A DNA stretch of 61,578 bases, filler included, from Choristocarpus tenellus KU-1152 (lineage: Eukaryota; Protista; Phaeophyceae), in assembly GCA_964200185.2 (NCBI GenBank). It is 9 parts of 9 records of this genome, joined end to end, with 100 filler letters (N's around TTAATTAATTAA, not from the genome) between each part and the next. Parts side by side here need not be neighbours in the genome. Positions count along the whole stretch, not along the records: positions 19,888 to 31,797 come from CAXNAD020002072.1; 8 more parts are not named here. One strand, 5' to 3'. Every line of letters starts with the position of its first letter. The first letter of the stretch is position 1. Shown piece after piece: positions 7,583-29,689 of the stretch. The notes under the pieces were generated by a model, which saw only the letters and a list, made by a program, of their open reading frames with translations, ran no database searches and was not told where the DNA came from. The translations under genes and the position numbers were made by a program.

Positions 7583-7682
7583 NNNNNNNNNNNNNNNNNN
7601 NNNNNNNNNNNNNNNNNNNNNNNNNNTTAATTAATTAANNNNNNNNNNNNNNNNNNNNNNNNNNNNNNNNNNNNNNNNNNNN
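7583..7682. other. Artificial contig spacer N44-TTAATTAATTAA-N44 (also 16716-16815, 19788-19887, 31798-31897, 35550-35649, 39673-39772, 54193-54292, 58671-58770)
   Basis: Identical 100-bp structure eight times; the 12-mer gives stops in all six frames. Confidence 0.98.
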
Positions 7683-16715: not shown

Positions 16716-16815
16716 NNNNNNNNNNNNNNNNNNNNNNNNNNNNNNNNNNNNNNNNNNNNTTAATTAATTAANNNNNNNNNNNNNNNNNNNNNNNNNNNNN
16801 NNNNNNNNNNNNNNN

Positions 16816-19620: not shown

Positions 19621-19887
19621 TCTAAGGAGGTTTCTAAGGCCAAACCCGTTTTTTTTCCTCCTCTGCCAGGACTTGCAGAAAATTGTGGAGTGATGAGAAT
19701 CTTATGAGAGGGGTATTGTTCGATTAGACTCTTCCAACTCTATCGGACAGTTACGGTAAATTATTTATGGAGTAATGGAACAATCAANNNNNNNNNNNNN
19801 NNNNNNNNNNNNNNNNNNNNNNNNNNNNNNNTTAATTAATTAANNNNNNNNNNNNNNNNNNNNNNNNNNNNNNNNNNNNNNNNNNNN

Positions 19888-20012
19888 GTGTGTCCGGAAC
19901 AAGCATATTTACACTTCCTAACAAGCATGATACCCAAAATTATATCAAAATCGCAACATTGGGTTTTTGCCCCCAAATGGACGCGACTCTACCCTCTAAG
20001 ATACTTTGACTC
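19888..20012 (+). mobile_element. MITE family B, right half (contig start)
   Basis: ...CCCCAAATGGAC...TACCCTCTAAGATACTTTGACTC. Confidence 0.88.
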
Positions 20013-20329
20013 AATTCAGAAATCCTCTACACTCATTTGGACAAATGCTGGAATTTGGAAATATTTGTCAGGATCCTTAAAATGCAACCCTGGGTACCTC
20101 TCGCTTACTTTGACTTAGGACTAGTCAAGAAACACGTATAAGAGTTGAAGGGAGTGCGAATGTTGGTGATGTGATATCTCTCATTGCTAATCTGGACAGG
20201 AAACATGTTGCTTATGCCCTTGCTGTACAGCTCATACCCGAGTCTGTGTTGATGTGTACACCCCTTCATAGTCGTCTTGTTTCCTAATTGGAACCAACTC
20301 CACAATCTTATGTCGAGACTCATCTGAAC

Positions 20330-22972
20330 ACAGGCCAGTATGGGAAGAACCTATGCCTTCGGAGTTGGATGGCTTGTTAGGCACAGATACCTTCAGTGGT
20401 ACTGATGTACTCACACGGTGCAAGACTATTGGTCTCATGGGGCCAAGGCTAGGTTAGTTGCTCACGGTTTTGGCCAGGAAGTATGGCCTTGATTACTTCG
20501 AGACCTCTGCCCCTACGCCTCCCCCCTCATCGTCGGTTAGGCTGATGGCCAGTATGGTCTGGGAGTTGGATCTGATAATTTGGCCTAGATGAAGAGCAGG
20601 CCTTTGTTCAATCTAGCCTGGATTAGGAAATGTACGCGCGCCTCCGGCAGGGAAGTGGAGAGCTCTCCTATACAACCGTGCGCCTCCACAGGCCCCTGAG
20701 AGCTTTGATGCAAACATTTAGGACTCGGAATGTGAAGATGGTTAAGTGAAAGTATCTTAGATGGTAGAAGTTTTGCCCTGTTTGTCTGTTTGGGCTTGGC
20801 TTCCCATGGGTTTTTTAATTAAATTTTCCTACCCCAAATATTTTCGGAGTAGATAAAATGTATGCGTTATGAAAAGGTGTGACGGCAATAAGGATACTTA
20901 CACTTCCTATCAAATATGATAGCCAAAATTACGTCAAAACCGCAACATTGGATTTTGGGCCTCAAATGGAGCGGCTCTACCCTCTAAGATACTTTAGTTC
21001 GTTTTCACCCTCAATCGAAATGGTTTTGAGCAGTGTCTGATCAACGGTTGTATCTCTAACTCAGGAAGAATGATCTTGTCAAGATGATACTCACAGGTCA
21101 TGTAGATGAGGCCCATAGTATCCTAAAGAGTTTTTTTTGTTCAGTTTATCCATTAGGAGCTTGATGGAGTGTTGCAAGATACCCCAGTTTGATGGCTGTT
21201 GTGTGGGTATTTTTGTTCGGATGTGGTCCATGCTGGAGGGTAGAAAAGGAAGTTGCGTTTGGATTAAAGGAATTGACTCTTCTACAGGGTCACACAGGCC
21301 CCCAATGCAAACCTGACCCGCCCCCTTTTGGGATACTGTAGATCTGACATGATGGTTTGGGTTTCTGAAGCTGATTGGAATGATCTTGTGCCTCCTAAAT
21401 GCTGAATTCCCCCCAAAAAATCTTGATGTGTTGTCTCAGTTGTATGACTGCACTTACACAAGACAATGGAAGCTTGCACTCTCTCAATCACCCAGAACTA
21501 GCTACATTAACAATTTTTGTGAGCGTTTTTTCACCCAATCAAGGAGTCCCATCCCTGCTGCCCCTTCCAGAAAGCTGGGAATTGGTAAAGGAGTTGATCT
21601 GTTGAAGGATTGCCCCTTTTGAGAGGCGGTTGAAGGGGTTGGTGTGGGTGAGCAACATGACCAGGCCAGATGTGGCCAATGCAGTGAGAGCTGTAGTTTG
21701 TCATTCGCCTGCTTCGAGCCACATGCATTGGAGAGCTGTCGCTCAGATCCTCAAATACCTCAAAGGGACACGAGAGTTGAGCCTGACCTACCAGAAATGA
21801 GCAGGACTGAACCTAGTGGCCTATACCGATGCGGGCTTCGCCAACAAGACTTCTGACGAAAGTTCTACATCAAGGGGGGCAATGATGTTTGGCGCGGGAG
21901 CAGTAGCCTGGCTTTCTAGGACCCAGCATATATTTGCACAATCCATTGCAGAGGCAGGACACATAGTCATGGGGGATTGTGTGAAGGAATTGTTGTTTTT
22001 GAGGAGTGTCTTGGAGTTTGTAGAACCTGATATTTCTGGCTCTTGCTACATAGTGCATTAGGACAATGCAAGGCCATTTATTTGGGTAACAACTCCCTGA
22101 CTTCAGGTAGTGTTCCAGCACGCTCCAAAGCTTACCTCCACGGAATGTATAGCTCCAGTCCACAAGCCTGTAGATGGCGCTGATGCCTGTACAGGACTCC
22201 TGATGCACACAGACAACCTAAGGTCCAACGAGGATGGTGAATATCAGGTCAGCAAATGAAGGTATACTCTCATTCACTGTAACTCTACGACAAAGAAATA
22301 AGAGACGGAAAAGGGCTGTCTTGATCTATTACATCTATTCTTATCGACTTTACAGACGCTGTAACACATCTGAAAATCGTTACTTTGTTCTAAGTTACAG
22401 ATCTTACACTGTAACTATAGTAAATCGAACTTCCCCAATTGGGGGTTCCAGGTGCACATTTACTGCCCTCACTCACTGGTTAGAACGCGAGAAGAAATAC
22501 TTCGCTATTCGCTTGGAATAGTAAGACGAAGTACATAGACGTACGACACTGTGCAGAATGGGGAGTGTGCACAATAAGATGTTTTAGGTTTGAGAGTTCC
22601 AGCAACTCTTCATTGCCTGCACTCTCGTGGGGGAGTGTGCAAAATAGGACAATAGTAAGGTGTACCTTATTTTGTGTGTATGAGATTATTGTGTTGAATT
22701 GAGTCCATGAGATGTAACTAATGAGACAGTACATCCGGATTATATATGGGATTATGTATGGGTATTTATTCCGCATTCAACTACTTTGACATAACCGTTG
22801 ACTTAGGTAGGAAGCACAAATAATAATAAAGGAATGAGAAGACACCCCATAAAGGTCACGCTTCTAATTTCAACCATGTAATCAGGTTCAGCAATGGGGA
22901 ACTGTGTGAGACTTCACATCTTCTTGTCTTCACTACTGATAAATAGTATTACCTCCCAAGGTAAATAGCACA
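20330..22972 (+). mobile_element. Ty1/Copia remnant (RT, RNase H, PPT, 3' LTR at 22636-22972)
   Basis: KARLVAHGFGQ..DYFETSAPTP; AYTDAGFA..AVAWLSRTQ..AQSIAEA..CVKELLFLR; KTKYIDVRH near 22522; GGGGGAG PPT then LTR TGTGC...GCACA homologous to the 37112 and 38893 LTRs. The segment may be a mosaic of more than one element. Confidence 0.8.
20744..21000 (+). mobile_element. MITE family B nested in Copia RT, 3-bp TSD GTT
   Basis: AAGTGAAAGTATCTTAG...CTCTAAGATACTTTAGTTC flanked by GTT; removing it plus 3 bp gives KMVFTLNRNGFEQCL in frame. Confidence 0.92.
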
Positions 22973-23968
22973 GAAACCACCTTTTGACAGACTTAGTAAC
23001 AAGTGGCGAGATAAAAGATCATCCATTTACATTCAGATGAGTACCTCATGTGCTGATTAAGTCTTCGCAGAGGAACCTTTTTTGGAGGTATGCAGGGTTT
23101 TGATGAATGTAGAGGGTTGTATATAGTAGCAGTTGATTCTTGCTGGGTTTAGATTTTGTTGGCGTTGTTTTTGATTTCCTTTTCTTTAGTGAGCTTGGTA
23201 GCTGCTTGTATTCTCTTTCCATGTATGTGTTAACCCTGATGGATTTTCTAGAATGCAAAATTGTACCTTGAAATTTTACTCAGTTATTTCAGTTAGGGAG
23301 GGTTTTCAATTAGGCTCTATCCACTCTATTGGAGAACTCTGAATATATATAGGCAGAGTACTTCGTAGTGGGTGTGGTGAGAACCTTTCTCATACAATAT
23401 GTAAGGGAAAATTTATGGTTTATGGAATGCCCTACCCAACATTAAGCAACCACTCTACAACATTTGGCAACATCCCTGTGTTTATCAATCCTACCATATT
23501 ATTACTCTAGGGGGGGATACTTTAACACGAACCTGTTAGTTGATCAGGTGTGTGCGATTCAGGAACCTTTGGAAAGCAGTCGACTACACTGAGCACGTTT
23601 GAAATGGAAAATAAAACTAGAGATGGTTAACCGAATGGAATTGGTTGCAGTTGAAGTTGAAGAGTTCATTGGTTGTGGGCAATGTTTCATTCGACTTTTT
23701 TGGGTAGTGTATGGTACATTCTCTTTGACAACATCCTAAAGTTCCCTTCGGTCTTTCGACCTCTCTTTGAGGGTATTAAAGATGTAAGAGGAGTTTTGTG
23801 GTGTACTAACGACCACATTTTGCCATCGATGAGAATTGAAGAAACAAGTTGAATACCTTGCCGTTATATTAATCCTATTTTGTAAACCACAGACGACAAA
23901 TCAGTCTTTTACAAGGGTGCATTTAAAAAAAGTTATCATACCTCCCAACACGCACAAGAGTTACCAAA

Positions 23969-24659
23969 ATGGCTATTCGCGAGGAGATGGTCAAGCGAGC
24001 AGTGACCTTCCTGCGGCATGAAAAAGTCAGGGACGCAGCGAAGACGCAGAAAGTGGCTTTTCTGAAGGGCAAGAACCTTACCGAAGAGGTAGGTGGGCCT
24101 AGTACAACTACCAACTTTTTGACTTCGAACCTTTGCTGACTGGTAAGAGCCAGAAGAAATTGTAAACATTCACTTACCTCGCGATGCTCAACTGTGCACG
24201 TAGGAAATAGAAGAATCTCTCAAGCGTGCCCTCTCTATGGGTGGCAATGAGGCTGTCACTGGAGAACAACGCCGGATCATGCTCTCCAACAAGGTCAGCG
24301 CTTCTCAGAGTGACGCAGTGGTCACGGGTGGAATGGTCTACATTAGTGGACAAACTGCAAGTCAAATCTCCGGATCCGATGAGGAGGTAACCGATGATGC
24401 AATCAAGGCTAAGGATGCTGAGGCGCAGACGGTGGCGACGCTGGAGAAGATTGAGCAGTTACTCAAGGCAGCAGGATCGAGCAAGGAAAAGGTGGTGCTT
24501 GTAACTATCTTTGTACAAAACTTAGAGCAAGATTTAGAGGGCGTCGAACGGGCATGGAATGCATGGGTAGTGCCAGGTAAGCAACCCGCACGAACATGCT
24601 TACAAGGAATCTCAGGAGAGGGACTCAGAGTGCAGATTCAGGTGGTCGCCAGGGCGTGA
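23969..24659 (+). CDS. Pex14 N-terminal-like domain fused to a Rid (YjgF/YER057c/UK114) domain; exons 23969-24088 and 24204-24659; 191 aa
   Basis: Exon 1 MAIREEMVKRAVTFLRHEKVRDAAKTQKVAFLKGKNLTEE joins exon 2 EIEESLKRA across a phase-0 GTAGGT..TAG intron, matching the Pex14_N pattern. It continues SDAVVTGGMVYISGQT...QTVATLEKIEQLLKAAGSSKEKVVLVTIF...WNAWVVPGKQPARTC...LRVQIQVVA, a Rid-family signature. Confidence 0.88.
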
Positions 24660-25987
24660 CAATGGTGATACAGTTGTTCCAGTGATCGTAGTTTGCGGGA
24701 GGTACTAGTACGGGTTCTCAAACCCCATCCCGACTTGACAGTTCCGACGGATGGTTATGTATGACTAATAGTACGACATGATAATAGGAAAGCCCATGAC
24801 CACTGGAGAGGATGCCCAGGGTGATGTCCTGTATTGTGGTTGGGGTTCTTACCAATGTGGCAATTTGGAGGGTATGAGAGTAGATGTAGTGATTGGAGTC
24901 ATAAAACCTTACCATAGAATCCCCTTTAAAGCATTCACCGATGGCATAAGTGCTTTCGGCCTTGAAACCCCGTCTGTGGACTTTCAGACCAAGGCATATC
25001 ATCACCCTGAACAATTATTTGGCAACGAAGAATTGAGGGATGATCAGTTGCGAAGAAGAGTGAGTTTCGGTAGGGAAGGTCACATTAGTGAACCTTTAGG
25101 AATCCCCAGGCTGCAACTGGTGTCTCATACTTCCCCTGTTTACGTCCAGTTCTTCATGCGAACAATCAGAGCATTTCGAAGTGGATACAACCAAGTAGAC
25201 ACAGGACTCAAAACCCATACAGAGGAGGGGTGTAGGACAACTGAGAAAAGATGCAAAACAAAATTAAAAAATGTGGAAGTCCAGCACCAACATAGAAATA
25301 TTAGCGAGTAGCACTACACTATTCAGACTATATCAAATCCTGAAGACCCTGTGTGCCACCAGTACACCTCTGAATGGCCATCACTTCACTACCTCTCTGC
25401 CCAAGGTAGACTGGAAATTGGAGACAATCTCAGGCTCTATGTTTAAGGGTTCTTGGAACGAGTTGGAATGCCATGCAAGAATTGAGAGTTGTCAGTTTCT
25501 TGAGGAAAATGTCTTCTAACCACCATCCTAGTGCATACACACTTATCTGTATTGTATATTTACAATATTGTGGCAATACGTGAACAGGAAAGCACAATAC
25601 ACTCTTCATACAAAGCTCTGGAGTTCCCTCATTTTCCTACCTCCTAGTGACCCTGGTTATTCCCATCCATCCATATCACTTTGCACTATCTCGACACTTT
25701 AATGATAAAAACCCCAAAAAGAAGTACCTCAAAAAGGTAACCTATACCCTCCCCTGTAACTCCAACATGGCAAACTCACAGACTTGCATACTTCCTGGAA
25801 GAGTTGGGAAGTAGCAACATCCTCTCATTTGAAGGAGAGCTAGGTTTGACCAGTCATCATTCCACTGAAGAAAGGGATATTTCCTTAAACATTCAATCTA
25901 TTGCCGTCCGTTTCATTCTTCCCACCCTAAATTTTCCTTCAGAAGGCCTTTTAATCACTACAAAAACTGGCCCTGTGCAAAGGGTTC

Positions 25988-27905
25988 TTATCTGTGTTTT
26001 AGTTTTCCAGGAGCAAGTCGCTCCATAAACTGTTCTAACTTATGCTGAACACAGGAAGTACTAGGTTTTCTCCCAGGACCAGCCCCTGATTCCAACAAGC
26101 TCAGAGCTTTTCGGCTCTGGGTCATGAAAAAATCACCCACATCCTCCTCCTCAGGTGACCTTGGGCGGCACCTAATGCACTTTCTAAAGGAAGAACAAGC
26201 ATCTGCAATGTTTCCGGTCTCCAATGCTGCTAGCCCCTGGCAGTAATGATTTCGTCTTGACAATGGATCTATCTTAAGGGCCTCATCGAAGTGTGCCTTT
26301 GTGCCAGTGCAGATATGGGGGTTAGGTGGGGAAAGAGCTGGGGATGGTTGAATAGAGTGATAAGCCATGCGCTTAGAACTAAATTGTGCATTGTAAAATT
26401 AGAGTCACAAGATAACACTAGTAACTATGTACATTGAAAGGATAGGTCGGAGTGGATGAGATGGACTCCGAAATGTAATGTACCACATGGACCGGGTAAC
26501 CAGGACACACCTCCAGAGCTCTTGCAGAGTACTGTAAGGGCCCCAAGAAAGTGTTCACATAGAATACAGTAATGCTAGGCTACAGTAGTTGCTATTTGGT
26601 CCATAGTTACCTGCGCTTTGCTCAAGTTGTACACAGGCCAAGGGGCAGCCAGGTGGAATGCCCCCATGAAGATGTGGCCAACACCTCCCTGGTACTTGGG
26701 GTACTGGGTTGTAAGCGGCCCCACGTGTCGCTTAAAGGTAAGAGCGTCAGCTTGCACAGCAGCCCTTAGCACACCCTTGGCACTGGAGCAGTATGTGTTC
26801 GCCTCTGCAACAAGGAAGAAATACTGCATGACGGGGGAGGAGAGGTAGGGTTATTGATGCCATGGTATGAGGGCTGGGAAGGGTACCTGGGGGAAGATCG
26901 GAGGTATTTACGAGGAACCCAAAGGCACATAATTGCGCCATCGAGAACTTGGGTTGTTCATGTTAACAAACTGTATGGACTACCACCAAGGCGAGATCTC
27001 TGATTCTCTGCAGTTGGAAGGGGACCTGCATTCGTGAATAGGGCAACTCCTGTGGTCACACACTGCAGTAGTGACTTGTGTTCTTGGTATAGACTAGGGC
27101 ACAGGTATAAATTGTGCATTGTTATACTCGCTTGGTTCTGACGTATTTAGAGTTAGTGATTGTTGCCAAATTTGTATAATCCATTTGCCGATTCTCTGTC
27201 AAGGATATTGAAGGGGATGAGAAGGGAAGGGGGACACATCTGTGATGTGAAACGACGGCACACCTCCTTAAGCACAATAATAAGCCTATCCATAGTGACA
27301 TATGCCAAGAAGCAACGAGATTCTCCTTGAAAACCCAACGAGTAACGTTCTCTGAGAATACGTCCAAGTGACCTGCCACCAACGATATTGGCGATTCGCG
27401 CAGTAGCCTGTCACTAAAAACACATCGAACCTAGATATGTTTCCTCTCTACTTATCAGCAACCGCACCTTTGCATCATCAACAGAAGGGCATTCCAAAGC
27501 ATGCACCTCTGCCAGGCGGAGTAACCTGAGGGCCTCGGACGCGTGCCTTTTCCAGATCTTGCGGCTTGAGGGAGAGTCGCCAGTCTTAACCACCCCACTC
27601 TCAACCCGTAAGAAGTTGCCGTTGGTACTCTGCCTTATCCACTTCAGCAGCGCCTCGGCTGCCGCCAATTGAATCATTGCATCATCTGGCGATTCCTCGA
27701 GCATGAGGTTTTTCGCCTCGTATGCCAACCAAGCTCCACTCCTCCTTCTATGTTCAATATCCAAAGTTGGTAAGCGAAGACGGGACACACCAATCCAGTT
27801 GGTTGACCTCCCTAACCACCTTCTCATCTCATCTACATTGGCCAAAGCTACGACGAAGGACGAATAGAGACATACAACCCGAGTCGTACGCCGAAGACCA
27901 ACCAT
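25988..27905 (-). CDS. TPR-like alpha-helical protein, ~319 aa; exons 27905-27468, 26823-26611, 26296-25988
   Basis: Phase-0 GT-AG junctions give a continuous ORF; TPR-like AHFDEALKIDPLSRRNHYCQGLAALETGNIADACSSFRKCI; hydrophobic N-terminus. Confidence 0.7.
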
Positions 27906-29689
27906 CACTAGCAAGTTCTCTCTTCTATATGAACATGAATGATCCCATGAACACTAAACAACAGAAGGAGTCACCAAGAACTGGTACGAGGTCTTCACAC
28001 TAGATATAGAAGTAACTGGATGTCCAGACCAGGGTACAGGTCAGTCCACGTGGTGGTCCGATTTACAATATCCATAACACTTAGTCCAACCCAGGTGAAA
28101 GAACATATAGGGTACTAAGTAGAACTTCAAAGTTGCTTTGCTTGGTCCAGGTTACAATCTTCGTACCTACCTCAGGTCTGCCCATTTTAGGACATCATTT
28201 AATTAGCCCGGTTTAAATATAAACAAAACCGGAAATGGTTGGTCCACGTTCCACATGGAGTTGGGTACGTCATCTCTGAAGGGATCACAAAACCAGACGT
28301 AACACAAAAACATTCAACAGAGGAAAGTGGAGGAGTTGAAGGTTTGAGTTGAGAGAAAGATGTGCATTGGTCCGGATTTTCTCCCTTGTGACCTTGGGTC
28401 GGTCCTGTTAAATCATGCTAATACTATGTACTACTACGTAAGTATTAATTTTTAGAAGTATTTTGTATGTCATTATATGTATCAATATTAGTAGACTTAC
28501 AACAGTATTTTTCGAAATACGACCGTAGAATGTAGTAATCTACTGGTTATTACTGACTGGGTATTACTAATTGCTGGTTGGCAATGAGCAGCACCACCAG
28601 TAGTAGTATCGACTTGGCAGTGGTAGTAGTAGTAGTAGTAGGGGACAATTTATGATCAACGAAGCAACCAAACTGCAAGATCCCCAATAATACCTCTTGA
28701 AGAACTTAATGATCTTAGCTACAAAGAATCGAGATCACAATATAGGACTACTGAACTTCTCGACTAAAAAAAAAATGAAGTCTGTCAACAGAAATGTGTG
28801 TGCCAGGAAAAGATTCGCTATTGATCAGTCACGTTGATCACTGCCTGTGAAGTAACCACTTCCAGAGTGACAGTAGCGGTGTAATAGTAGTACAAAATGC
28901 AGCGACAATGACAGCACAAGTAGTGAGGTCAAGTTGAAAGCCACAAAACTACCCCCCTCGATACCCTGCCTTCAAGTACTCGCTGAGTTGATCCTCCAGC
29001 CTTTTGTCCATGCTATCCTTCACCTCTATATAACATATTGGCATAGGAGAACCTTGTTGAAGGTTATCACGTCATCGGAGATTATACATATATGTGCAAG
29101 TACCAAAAATGCAATAAATCTTATTTATGGTCCACTCCCATGTTTCTGCTTGTTGATTTTCGCCTAGTTCAGTAGAAATAATGCAACTGTCCAATACTAT
29201 TTCTCCGGGGTACTTGTCATTTTTCATTGTATCCTTGGAAGTATTGCATTATGCTAACTCACGTTGTCCAGTTCGTATATAACTATCTAAGTCAAACTCA
29301 CTAAACCTCACTACTACAGTATCTCCTAAACAGGACTAGGCCTCAGCCCAATCTGGTTATACTTTTCGATTGTCCCAGTCTGGTCCTGTTCAGGCCTTTC
29401 CCCCCCAAGGTTGGTCTATAACCGTCTCCAGTTTTATAGTCTCGGTCACACCGGTTCGGCCCCGTTAACACAAGTTTAGGCTGGGCCAGTTCGTGATCCG
29501 GTCCAGATATACTCTGTGATGGTGGTCTTGGACTGGCCCTGTTGAACCAAATTCCACCTGTATCGGTTCCCTGACCGGTCCTTTCACGCAATTCCGATCT
29601 GGTGCAATGCCCTGGACTTGGGGACTTATCTCTAAAGACTGGAAAATCTCTGTGTCCCGTAGACCAGACCTGAGTAACAGACTATAGGA

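Follow-up and report, generated by a model that had tools for sequence, protein, structure and literature searches.

A Pex14_N domain joined to a Rid2-like domain in Choristocarpus tenellus and other algae: gene structure, relatives and possible functions

The fusion gene, its transcript and its surroundings

The window referred to here is the whole stretch of Choristocarpus tenellus DNA that was analysed (61,578 nt), and all positions are those of the window. On its plus strand lies a gene whose spliced product joins an N-terminal Pex14_N domain, the Pex5-docking domain of the peroxin PEX14, to a domain of the Rid family. The reading frame extends from an ATG at 23969 to a stop in the codon ending at 24659 and, when joined, comprises 576 nt specifying 191 amino acids with a single terminal stop. 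The features of the transcript are as follows:

22937..23036, plus strand: untranslated first exon (positions 1 to 100 of X3 contig record 9; its start is the contig's own beginning and not a mapped transcription start site)
23037..23951, plus strand: leader intron of 915 nt with AT..AC ends (joint 23036/23952; one contig, depth 86.7, cut unambiguous)
23952..24088, plus strand: second exon, composed of 17 nt of leader and the first coding part, 23969 to 24088 (40 codons, amino acids 1 to 40), specifying helices 1 to 3 of Pex14_N
24089..24203, plus strand: intron of 115 nt, GT..AG, phase 0, within Pex14_N (skipped in the X3 contig)
24204..24659, plus strand: coding part of the third exon (amino acids 41 to 191), specifying the last Pex14_N helix, a short linker and the Rid2-like domain, with the stop
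24660..26298, plus strand: probable long 3′ untranslated region (X3 record 9 extends to 26298; the distal part overlaps a convergent gene and the end is not fixed)

Splicing was assessed in three public runs of one study, designated X1, X2 and X3, none of which is recorded as RNA; X3 is taken to be RNA solely because of the intron skipping described here, and X2 is possibly the source of the window sequence itself. The three-exon structure derives from a single X3 contig (2333 nt, depth 86.7), from which the 115-nt intron is precisely absent, as expected of the 24088/24204 junction put forward in the first-pass annotation, and whose extra 100 letters map to positions 22937 to 23036, across the 915-nt intron. 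Contigs skipping the 115-nt intron numbered zero in X1 and zero in X2, both of which read through it. The initial description of a 2-exon, 191-residue open reading frame with an intron-split first domain is borne out by the coordinates as regards the two coding exons, the length and the placement of the 24089-24203 intron inside Pex14_N, whereas the transcript possesses three exons, the first of which (22937-23036) is untranslated.

Residues 7 to 191 are identical to the C. tenellus protein CAM9343843.1 at NCBI, a model which begins at the second Met. We favor the first Met as the start on the basis of the sequences of its relatives and of the lack of an upstream ATG. A further upstream coding exon was considered and ruled out, the 117-nt spliced leader being devoid of an ATG and containing in-frame stops. 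The 5′ end of the leader intron (23037-23951, plus strand) resembles a major-spliceosome donor in which the first G is replaced by A, and a motif check of the 915-nt intron identified no U12 donor or branch consensus. It is probably a rare U2-type AT-AC intron, as judged from this one contig, U2-type AT-AC introns being a named category (PMC1557818, in excerpt).

Because the spliced form was observed in one contig of one run, and because the NCBI model may share those data, the fusion could in principle be a gene-model artefact in which annotation joined adjacent pieces. The X3 contig, however, skips an exact GT..AG intron, and this intron lies inside Pex14_N, the second coding exon completing the domain (the Pfam Pex14_N match of the spliced protein spans 5 to 46 of 46). 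The join between the two coding exons is independently supported by this arrangement, in which the last helix of the domain is supplied by the second of them, and by the intron position shared with other brown algae, where six of six genomic read-through open reading frames (P0276 to P0280 and P0283) exit Pex14_N at the same codon. Full-length copies, 13 overall, are furthermore available, those of Tribonema and Heterosigma being transcript derived. The exact splice, the domain completion and the full-length relatives are taken to refute the artefact, whose probability is considered negligible.

Downstream, a convergent three-exon gene occupies positions 25988 to 27967 on the minus strand (introns 26297-26610 and 26824-27467), its 3′ end overlapping the 3′ region of the fusion transcript. 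Two of its open reading frames were scanned with Pfam, which returned weak TPR matches and no peroxin match, and the X3 contig carries one extra base at 26047, inside the last exon of this gene. Upstream of the fusion gene, positions 19900 to 22971 consist of high-copy repeats, with a summed X2 depth of up to approximately 118,000 compared to approximately 19 over the gene. At 7583-7682, 16716-16815, 19788-19887 and five similar places, 12 bases are flanked on both sides by a run of 44 N, an arrangement which probably marks assembly gaps.

The Pex14_N and Rid2-like domains

Within the coding exons, the following features were assigned:

24059..24061, plus strand: Phe31, equivalent to F52 of human PEX14 in the Pex5-binding groove (alignment to 2w84/4bxu)
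24071..24073, plus strand: Lys35, equivalent to K56 of human PEX14, which forms a salt bridge to Pex5 (alignment to 2w84/4bxu)
24300..24650, plus strand: Rid (Ribonuc_L-PSP) domain by Pfam match (residues 33 to 149 of the second coding exon)
24372..24398, plus strand: acidic insert, varying in length among brown-algal copies (pLDDT below 50 at model residues 89 to 102)
24591..24593, plus strand: Arg170, at the position of the Rid catalytic Arg (matched by Arg in the alignment to PA5083, PSPTO_0102 and 3gtz)
24633..24635, plus strand: Gln184, at the position of the conserved Glu of Rid proteins (sequence alignment)

The assignment of the N-terminal part to Pex14_N, originally made from a residue pattern, is confirmed by profile search, as the first coding exon alone matches the Pfam family (PF04695) at an E value of 9.1e-13 and with 48.1 bits against a cut-off of 23.2 (51.2 bits against the same cut-off for P0001). 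In the predicted model (mean pLDDT 75, pTM 0.57), four helices are formed at residues 2 to 45, and residues 1 to 45 superpose on experimental structures of Pex14 N-domains (44 residues of 5aon at an rmsd of 1.0 Å and Z 7.5; 43 residues of 3ff5 at an rmsd of 0.8 Å and Z 7.3). A fold search with a family model returned Pex14 in all listed rows to rank 22, with TM scores of 0.75 to 0.88 and none at an E value of ≤0.001.

F52 and K56 of human PEX14 bind Pex5 (bioRxiv 10.1101/2020.07.23.218024, in excerpt), and their equivalents, Phe31 and Lys35, are unchanged in 13 of 13 full-length fusions. Pex14_N identity exceeds Rid identity in each of 28 pairs drawn from eight sequences (mean 64% versus 43%), pairs which are not independent of one another, and Pex14_N is slow-evolving in ordinary PEX14 too. 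Judged from the invariance of Phe31 and Lys35, together with a degree of conservation higher than that of the Rid half, the binding groove is under selection. A fusion-type signature is also apparent, consisting of Arg at core position 4 (10/10) and replacement of the Gly57 equivalent in the copies shown. A Pex14_N tree of 42 cores and 43 columns, constructed without stramenopile PEX14, neither supports nor excludes a single origin.

UniRef designates the fusions of Ectocarpus siliculosus and Tribonema minus as PEX14, which would accord with the protein being the organism's own PEX14, or a stand-in for it in which a Rid trimer substitutes for the coiled coil. This is very improbable, since E. 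siliculosus carries the fusion (CBN76867.1) besides a separate, much longer protein, CBJ27246.1, which is its PEX14 according to the supplement of PMC6203080 (in excerpt), and since in the model a low-confidence linker of approximately 11 residues connects the final Pex14_N helix to the opening strand of the Rid fold, and neither a membrane helix nor a coiled coil is seen. The hydropathy maximum of the fusion (1.12) is lower than those of two full PEX14 proteins (2.05 and 2.31) and exceeds that of a third (1.01), being a weak test when taken alone. In agreement with the first-pass annotation, we conclude that the fusion protein is not canonical PEX14, as it has no anchor or coiled coil, the rest of its chain adopts a Rid fold, and Ectocarpus possesses a full PEX14 in addition.

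The second coding exon matches Pfam Ribonuc_L-PSP (PF01042) at an E value of 7.8e-19, with 68.3 bits against a cut-off of 27.3, and the model agrees, adopting a Rid fold from residue 57 (Foldseek E 1.5e-9; Z up to 14.9). The PART, WNAWV.PG and VQIQ motifs and the acidic insert reported previously are all present. An assignment to Rid1/Rid2-type subfamilies had also been made, of which the Rid2 part stands and the Rid1 part does not: among the top four PDB sequence matches of the exon (E values of 2.6e-11 to 1.1e-10), PA5083 and PSPTO_0102 rank first and are joined by 3gtz, which we take to be YoaB. These structures are likewise the top matches by fold, and a further structure-only search does not separate the Rid subfamilies. 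PA5083 and PSPTO_0102 are Rid2 proteins, and Rid1 to Rid7 are described as prokaryote-only (PMC5619798, in excerpt).

The domain misses the RidA subfamily cut-off (NCBIfam TIGR00004, 46.3 bits versus 106.25), and its Glu is replaced by Gln; across the fusions, this conserved Glu is present in 2 of 13 and replaced in 11. Rid1 to Rid3 retain the Glu, and its replacement has little effect in Salmonella RidA (PMC4433059, in excerpt). The catalytic Arg, which is predictive of activity, is present in 11 of the 13 fusions and absent from both Tribonema copies, as well as from fragments P0024 and P0156. Given the replacement at Gln184, the Rid half is, on alignment, classed as Rid2-like and not as a full Rid2 member. 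A Rid tree of 95 domains (15 fusion or fragment rows, plus the 55 best-ranked and 25 randomly drawn from 354 others), generated by a quick method without labeled references, is poorly resolved, with long branches for Tribonema and Heterosigma, and leaves the origin of the fused Rid domains as one clade unsettled (7 changes, 2 of which are forced by strong branches). A WxxW motif was considered as an internal Pex14_N ligand and dropped, as bacterial Rid2 proteins carry WxxW too.

When three copies were folded together, a score of 0.88 was obtained, compared to 0.00 for the best of three controls, a result possibly owed to Rid trimer structures memorized by the predictor; at least 88% of contacts are shared between runs, and partner pLDDT is at least 78. 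Among microbial proteins, the mark for this score is attained by 20 of 30 solved pairs and by 1 of 23 single chains, the eukaryotic figures being 17 of 29 and 0 of 30, respectively. The predicted interface residues listed all fall at positions 56 to 184, with none in Pex14_N. The Rid half is predicted to trimerize and to leave three Pex14_N heads free, in line with the trimeric Pex14_N display envisaged at the outset.

Relatives of the fusion and their C-termini

Queries consisted of the protein and of two alignments, one built from five fusions and the other from six N-domains, and were complemented by cluster look-ups. Among the matches listed, 13 full-length Pex14_N-Rid fusions were recognized in seven named genera, namely, Choristocarpus, Ascophyllum, Pylaiella, Hapterophycus, Ectocarpus (five records), Tribonema (two species) and Heterosigma, together with one Logan record. 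Pfam scans covered nine of the 13, all of which score above both cut-offs; the other four were matched by local profiles. The Heterosigma label follows EukProt, the taxon number in the record header resolving to a flowering plant; it is accepted here because it fits the closeness of the Pex14_N of this copy to that of Chattonella. The fusion-bearing genera span the Phaeophyceae, Xanthophyceae and Raphidophyceae. At least 11 more fragments of the same family are gene calls containing the second coding exon alone. Identity of the Rid half between classes is 26 to 34%, from which the fusion is judged to be old and conserved across three algal classes.

No diatom, oomycete or eustigmatophyte copy occurred among the named matches listed (approximately 8000 candidates scored; best 120 of 129 and best 120 of 185), a coverage too limited to indicate absence. 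Scans of metagenome contigs confirmed 0 of 53 and 0 of 116 pattern matches, a weak test in view of introns and the narrow patterns, and a search of the ESM Atlas by features gave no match for the fusion (one RidA-family cluster was retrieved by structure). A widespread and already characterized fusion would have spoken against the first-pass annotation; the fusion does extend beyond one genome, to the seven named genera, but no description of a Pex14_N-Rid fusion was encountered in the literature searched, subscription journals lying largely outside that search, and the excerpted supplement of PMC6203080 contains no mention of L-PSP, CBN76867, Heterosigma, Chattonella or Tribonema. In our view, two known domains are combined here in an architecture that is both new and conserved, the Ectocarpus protein being already present in databases under automatic names.

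Pex14_N was also encountered in other settings. In P0003, P0009, P0010, P0013 and P0020, all of them large proteins, Pex14_N is repeated in tandem 7 to 12 times, and P0105 (320 residues) combines two copies of the domain with a KPWE-like motif close to its end. An unusual Rid fusion is represented by P0150 (594 residues), which combines a Rid domain with RanBP-type zinc fingers.

The best non-Rid match among the matches listed in the N-domain alignment search is P0275 (JGI, 531 residues), in which Pex14_N is followed by a complete citrate synthase domain (Pfam 1 to 357 of 357). Its citrate synthase is a mitochondrial-type enzyme, and because the alignment to mature enzymes starts at approximately residue 95, Pex14_N is considered, from this alignment, to occupy the presequence position. 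Between P0275 and the Heterosigma Rid fusion, 35 of 43 Pex14_N positions are identical, the next best of 172 cores sharing 26 of 43. P0275 terminates in SKL, located at the very end of the core, where the Arabidopsis mitochondrial enzyme also terminates in the alignment. P0389, from Chattonella subsalsa, is the cluster twin of P0275 and has the same architecture; it ends before the SKL position, and as the two are identical in their overlap, they may stem from one species or data set. Together they represent a candidate peroxisomal citrate synthase in a stramenopile. The N-terminal part of this fusion gave no match in the ESM Atlas.

The C-terminal tripeptide is AHL in eight of the 13 Rid fusions, and AHL is among the validated PTS1 signals of plants (PMC9328179 and PMC3427985, both in excerpt). 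The Choristocarpus copy ends in ARA, and those of Ascophyllum, Tribonema and Heterosigma end in AAL, AAM and IGC, respectively, none of which is on the validated plant PTS1 list. For comparison, 6 of 163 short single-domain Rid matches carry a PTS1-type tripeptide, three of these six being brown-algal fragments by tree. AHL is situated on the last beta strand and is one change away from the AAL end of PSPTO_0102; its presence in eight related copies may, therefore, reflect one event and a poorly exposed terminus. Among stand-alone relatives, P0018 and P0059 carry AKL ends on a short tail, and several have N-termini which, judged by eye, are presequence-like. These stand-alone Rid2-like proteins (P0018, P0059, P0039, P0081, P0163, P0397 and P0396, some with AKL ends and some with presequence-like N-termini) suggest a wider eukaryotic Rid2-like group.

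Possible functions and comparison with known systems

It is proposed, with a probability of roughly two in five, that Pex14_N serves as a portable Pex5-binding tag which brings enzymes to peroxisomes. The spliced 191-residue protein, having no membrane anchor, would assemble into a trimer with three Pex14_N heads, which would likely grip the WxxxF motifs of Pex5 with avidity, and Pex5 would then carry the fusion enzyme to or into peroxisomes. Once there, the Rid2-like site would likely hydrolyze imines arising from flavin oxidases, Rid2 proteins being known to hydrolyze imines made by amino-acid oxidase (PMC4433059 and PMC5619798, in excerpt). Pex14_N would have replaced an N-terminal targeting peptide, and may act alone, as in the copy ending in ARA, or together with a C-terminal PTS1, as in the AHL and SKL relatives. 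Ectocarpus encodes Pex5, Pex7 and a full PEX14, with two WxxxF motifs in the part of its Pex5 that is shown (PMC6203080, in excerpt). Nannochloropsis likewise has Pex14 and Pex7, both of which Phaeodactylum lacks. In favor of the proposal count the invariant Phe31 and Lys35, the fit to Pex14 N-domain structures, the greater conservation of Pex14_N, the citrate synthase fusion, the AHL, SKL and AKL ends of relatives, the predicted trimer and the finding of mammalian UK114, which may clear imines there, in the peroxisomal matrix. A more far-reaching form of the proposal, in which the docking domain has been turned into a folded, portable import signal and grafted onto at least two unrelated enzymes in place of presequences, binding Pex5 through WxxxF motifs and so letting cargo make use of the receptor end thought to be reserved for the translocon, is doubtful.

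The first-pass annotation had offered both a Pex5 decoy or regulator and a signal-independent route to peroxisomes; the occurrence of a similar Pex14_N on a citrate synthase ending in SKL tilts the evidence towards the latter. Certain findings speak against a tag. Where a PTS1 is present, a second tag has no obvious use; the C-termini of the Choristocarpus, Ascophyllum, Tribonema and Heterosigma copies are off the validated plant list; neither Tribonema copy, nor P0024 or P0156, retains the catalytic Arg, and 11 of 13 fusions have lost the Glu; and the Pex5-binding surface of human Pex14_N also accepts beta-tubulin. Docking is, moreover, subject to competition from free Pex14_N, so that a bound trimer might block import instead of riding on it.

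Alternatively, the protein may regulate Pex5, its Rid half functioning mainly as a three-fold scaffold that mimics the display of membrane PEX14 and buffers, holds or releases the receptor, with enzyme activity being optional. The better conservation of Pex14_N, the losses of Arg (two of 13 full copies and two fragments) and of Glu, and the long variable inserts in the Rid half are consistent with such a role, and the predicted Rid trimer would present the same number of heads as the Pex14 homotrimer (PMC12738837, in excerpt). The Arg nonetheless persists in 11 of the 13 copies, which here span two classes, the Glu is of little consequence in Salmonella RidA (PMC4433059, in excerpt), and the citrate synthase fusion is a complete enzyme, which fits a tag better than a scaffold. 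Regulation of Pex5, be it by a cytosolic decoy or by a matrix catcher, is considered unlikely overall.

Pex14_N may instead recognize another amphipathic helix, such as the C-terminal motifs of beta-tubulin or Pex19, and thereby place a cytosolic imine-repair enzyme on microtubules or at another nonperoxisomal site. The surface of human Pex14_N which binds Pex5 also binds beta-tubulin, and microtubules are bound via F52 and K56, more tightly by the dimer (bioRxiv 10.1101/2020.07.23.218024, in excerpt), so that a trimer would gain avidity. The tandem repeats seen in five of the best 20 matches indicate that the domain is used beyond ordinary PEX14, and both the fusion-type signature (Arg at core position 4, Gly57 equivalent replaced) and the lack of a PTS1 in the Choristocarpus copy are compatible with a different ligand. 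Against this, in the human system the affinity of tubulin peptides is lower than that of Pex5 peptides by a factor of at least 50 (same excerpt), and the SKL, AHL and AKL ends of relatives favor a peroxisomal location; a ligand other than Pex5 is judged quite unlikely.

Pex14_N has been treated as a signature of PEX14; it appears here as a mobile domain under strong constraint on soluble enzymes in three algal classes, and counts of PEX14 in algal genomes based on Pex14_N alone can be wrong. The Rid half places a Rid2-like protein in eukaryotes, the subfamily having been described as prokaryote-only. Should Pex5 be bound, the fusion would amount to an import signal of a new kind or, alternatively, to a naturally occurring regulator of the receptor. 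In both cases it would be informative on the timing and place of contact between WxxxF motifs and Pex14_N during import, an unsettled matter for which a small soluble trimer offers an easy test.

The fusion shares with PEX14 (PF04695) an N-terminal helical domain bearing the Pex5-binding residues, and its predicted three-fold display parallels the homotrimer formed by full-length Pex14, in which the three N-domains are believed to engage several WxxxF motifs with avidity (PMC12738837, in excerpt). Unlike PEX14, it has no membrane segment, coiled coil or KPWE domain, the Rid domain follows directly, and a full PEX14 coexists with it in Ectocarpus. With the Rid2 (YoaB-like) imine deaminases PA5083, PSPTO_0102 and Salmonella 3gtz it has in common sequence, fold, the catalytic Arg and a (predicted) trimer, and it differs from them in being eukaryotic, in the replaced Glu, in the acidic insert and in the N-terminal Pex14_N. 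Mammalian UK114/RIDA is similarly a member of the Rid family, and UK114 is an imine deaminase reported in the peroxisomal matrix (PMC5979572, in excerpt); in contrast to the fusion, it belongs to the RidA subfamily, consists of a single domain and keeps Tyr, Arg and Glu.

Among citrate synthases, P0275 and P0389 differ from yeast Cit2 in carrying Pex14_N in place of a presequence; to our knowledge, no Pex14_N-type domain is present on Cit2. Cit2 itself is a citrate synthase found in peroxisomes (PMC9549241, in excerpt), while P0275 is of the mitochondrial type with an SKL end. Finally, Pex5 is known to carry PTS1-less cargo, either by binding outside the PTS1 pocket, as with the "PTS3" patch of yeast acyl-CoA oxidase, or by piggyback, in which cargo rides on a partner; the excerpts of this literature (PMC9133605 and PMC9549241) contain no instance of Pex5 carrying cargo via a copy of the docking domain. 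The fusion would depart from both of these routes in that a copy of the docking domain would itself be the signal, occupying the very WxxxF motifs needed by PEX14.
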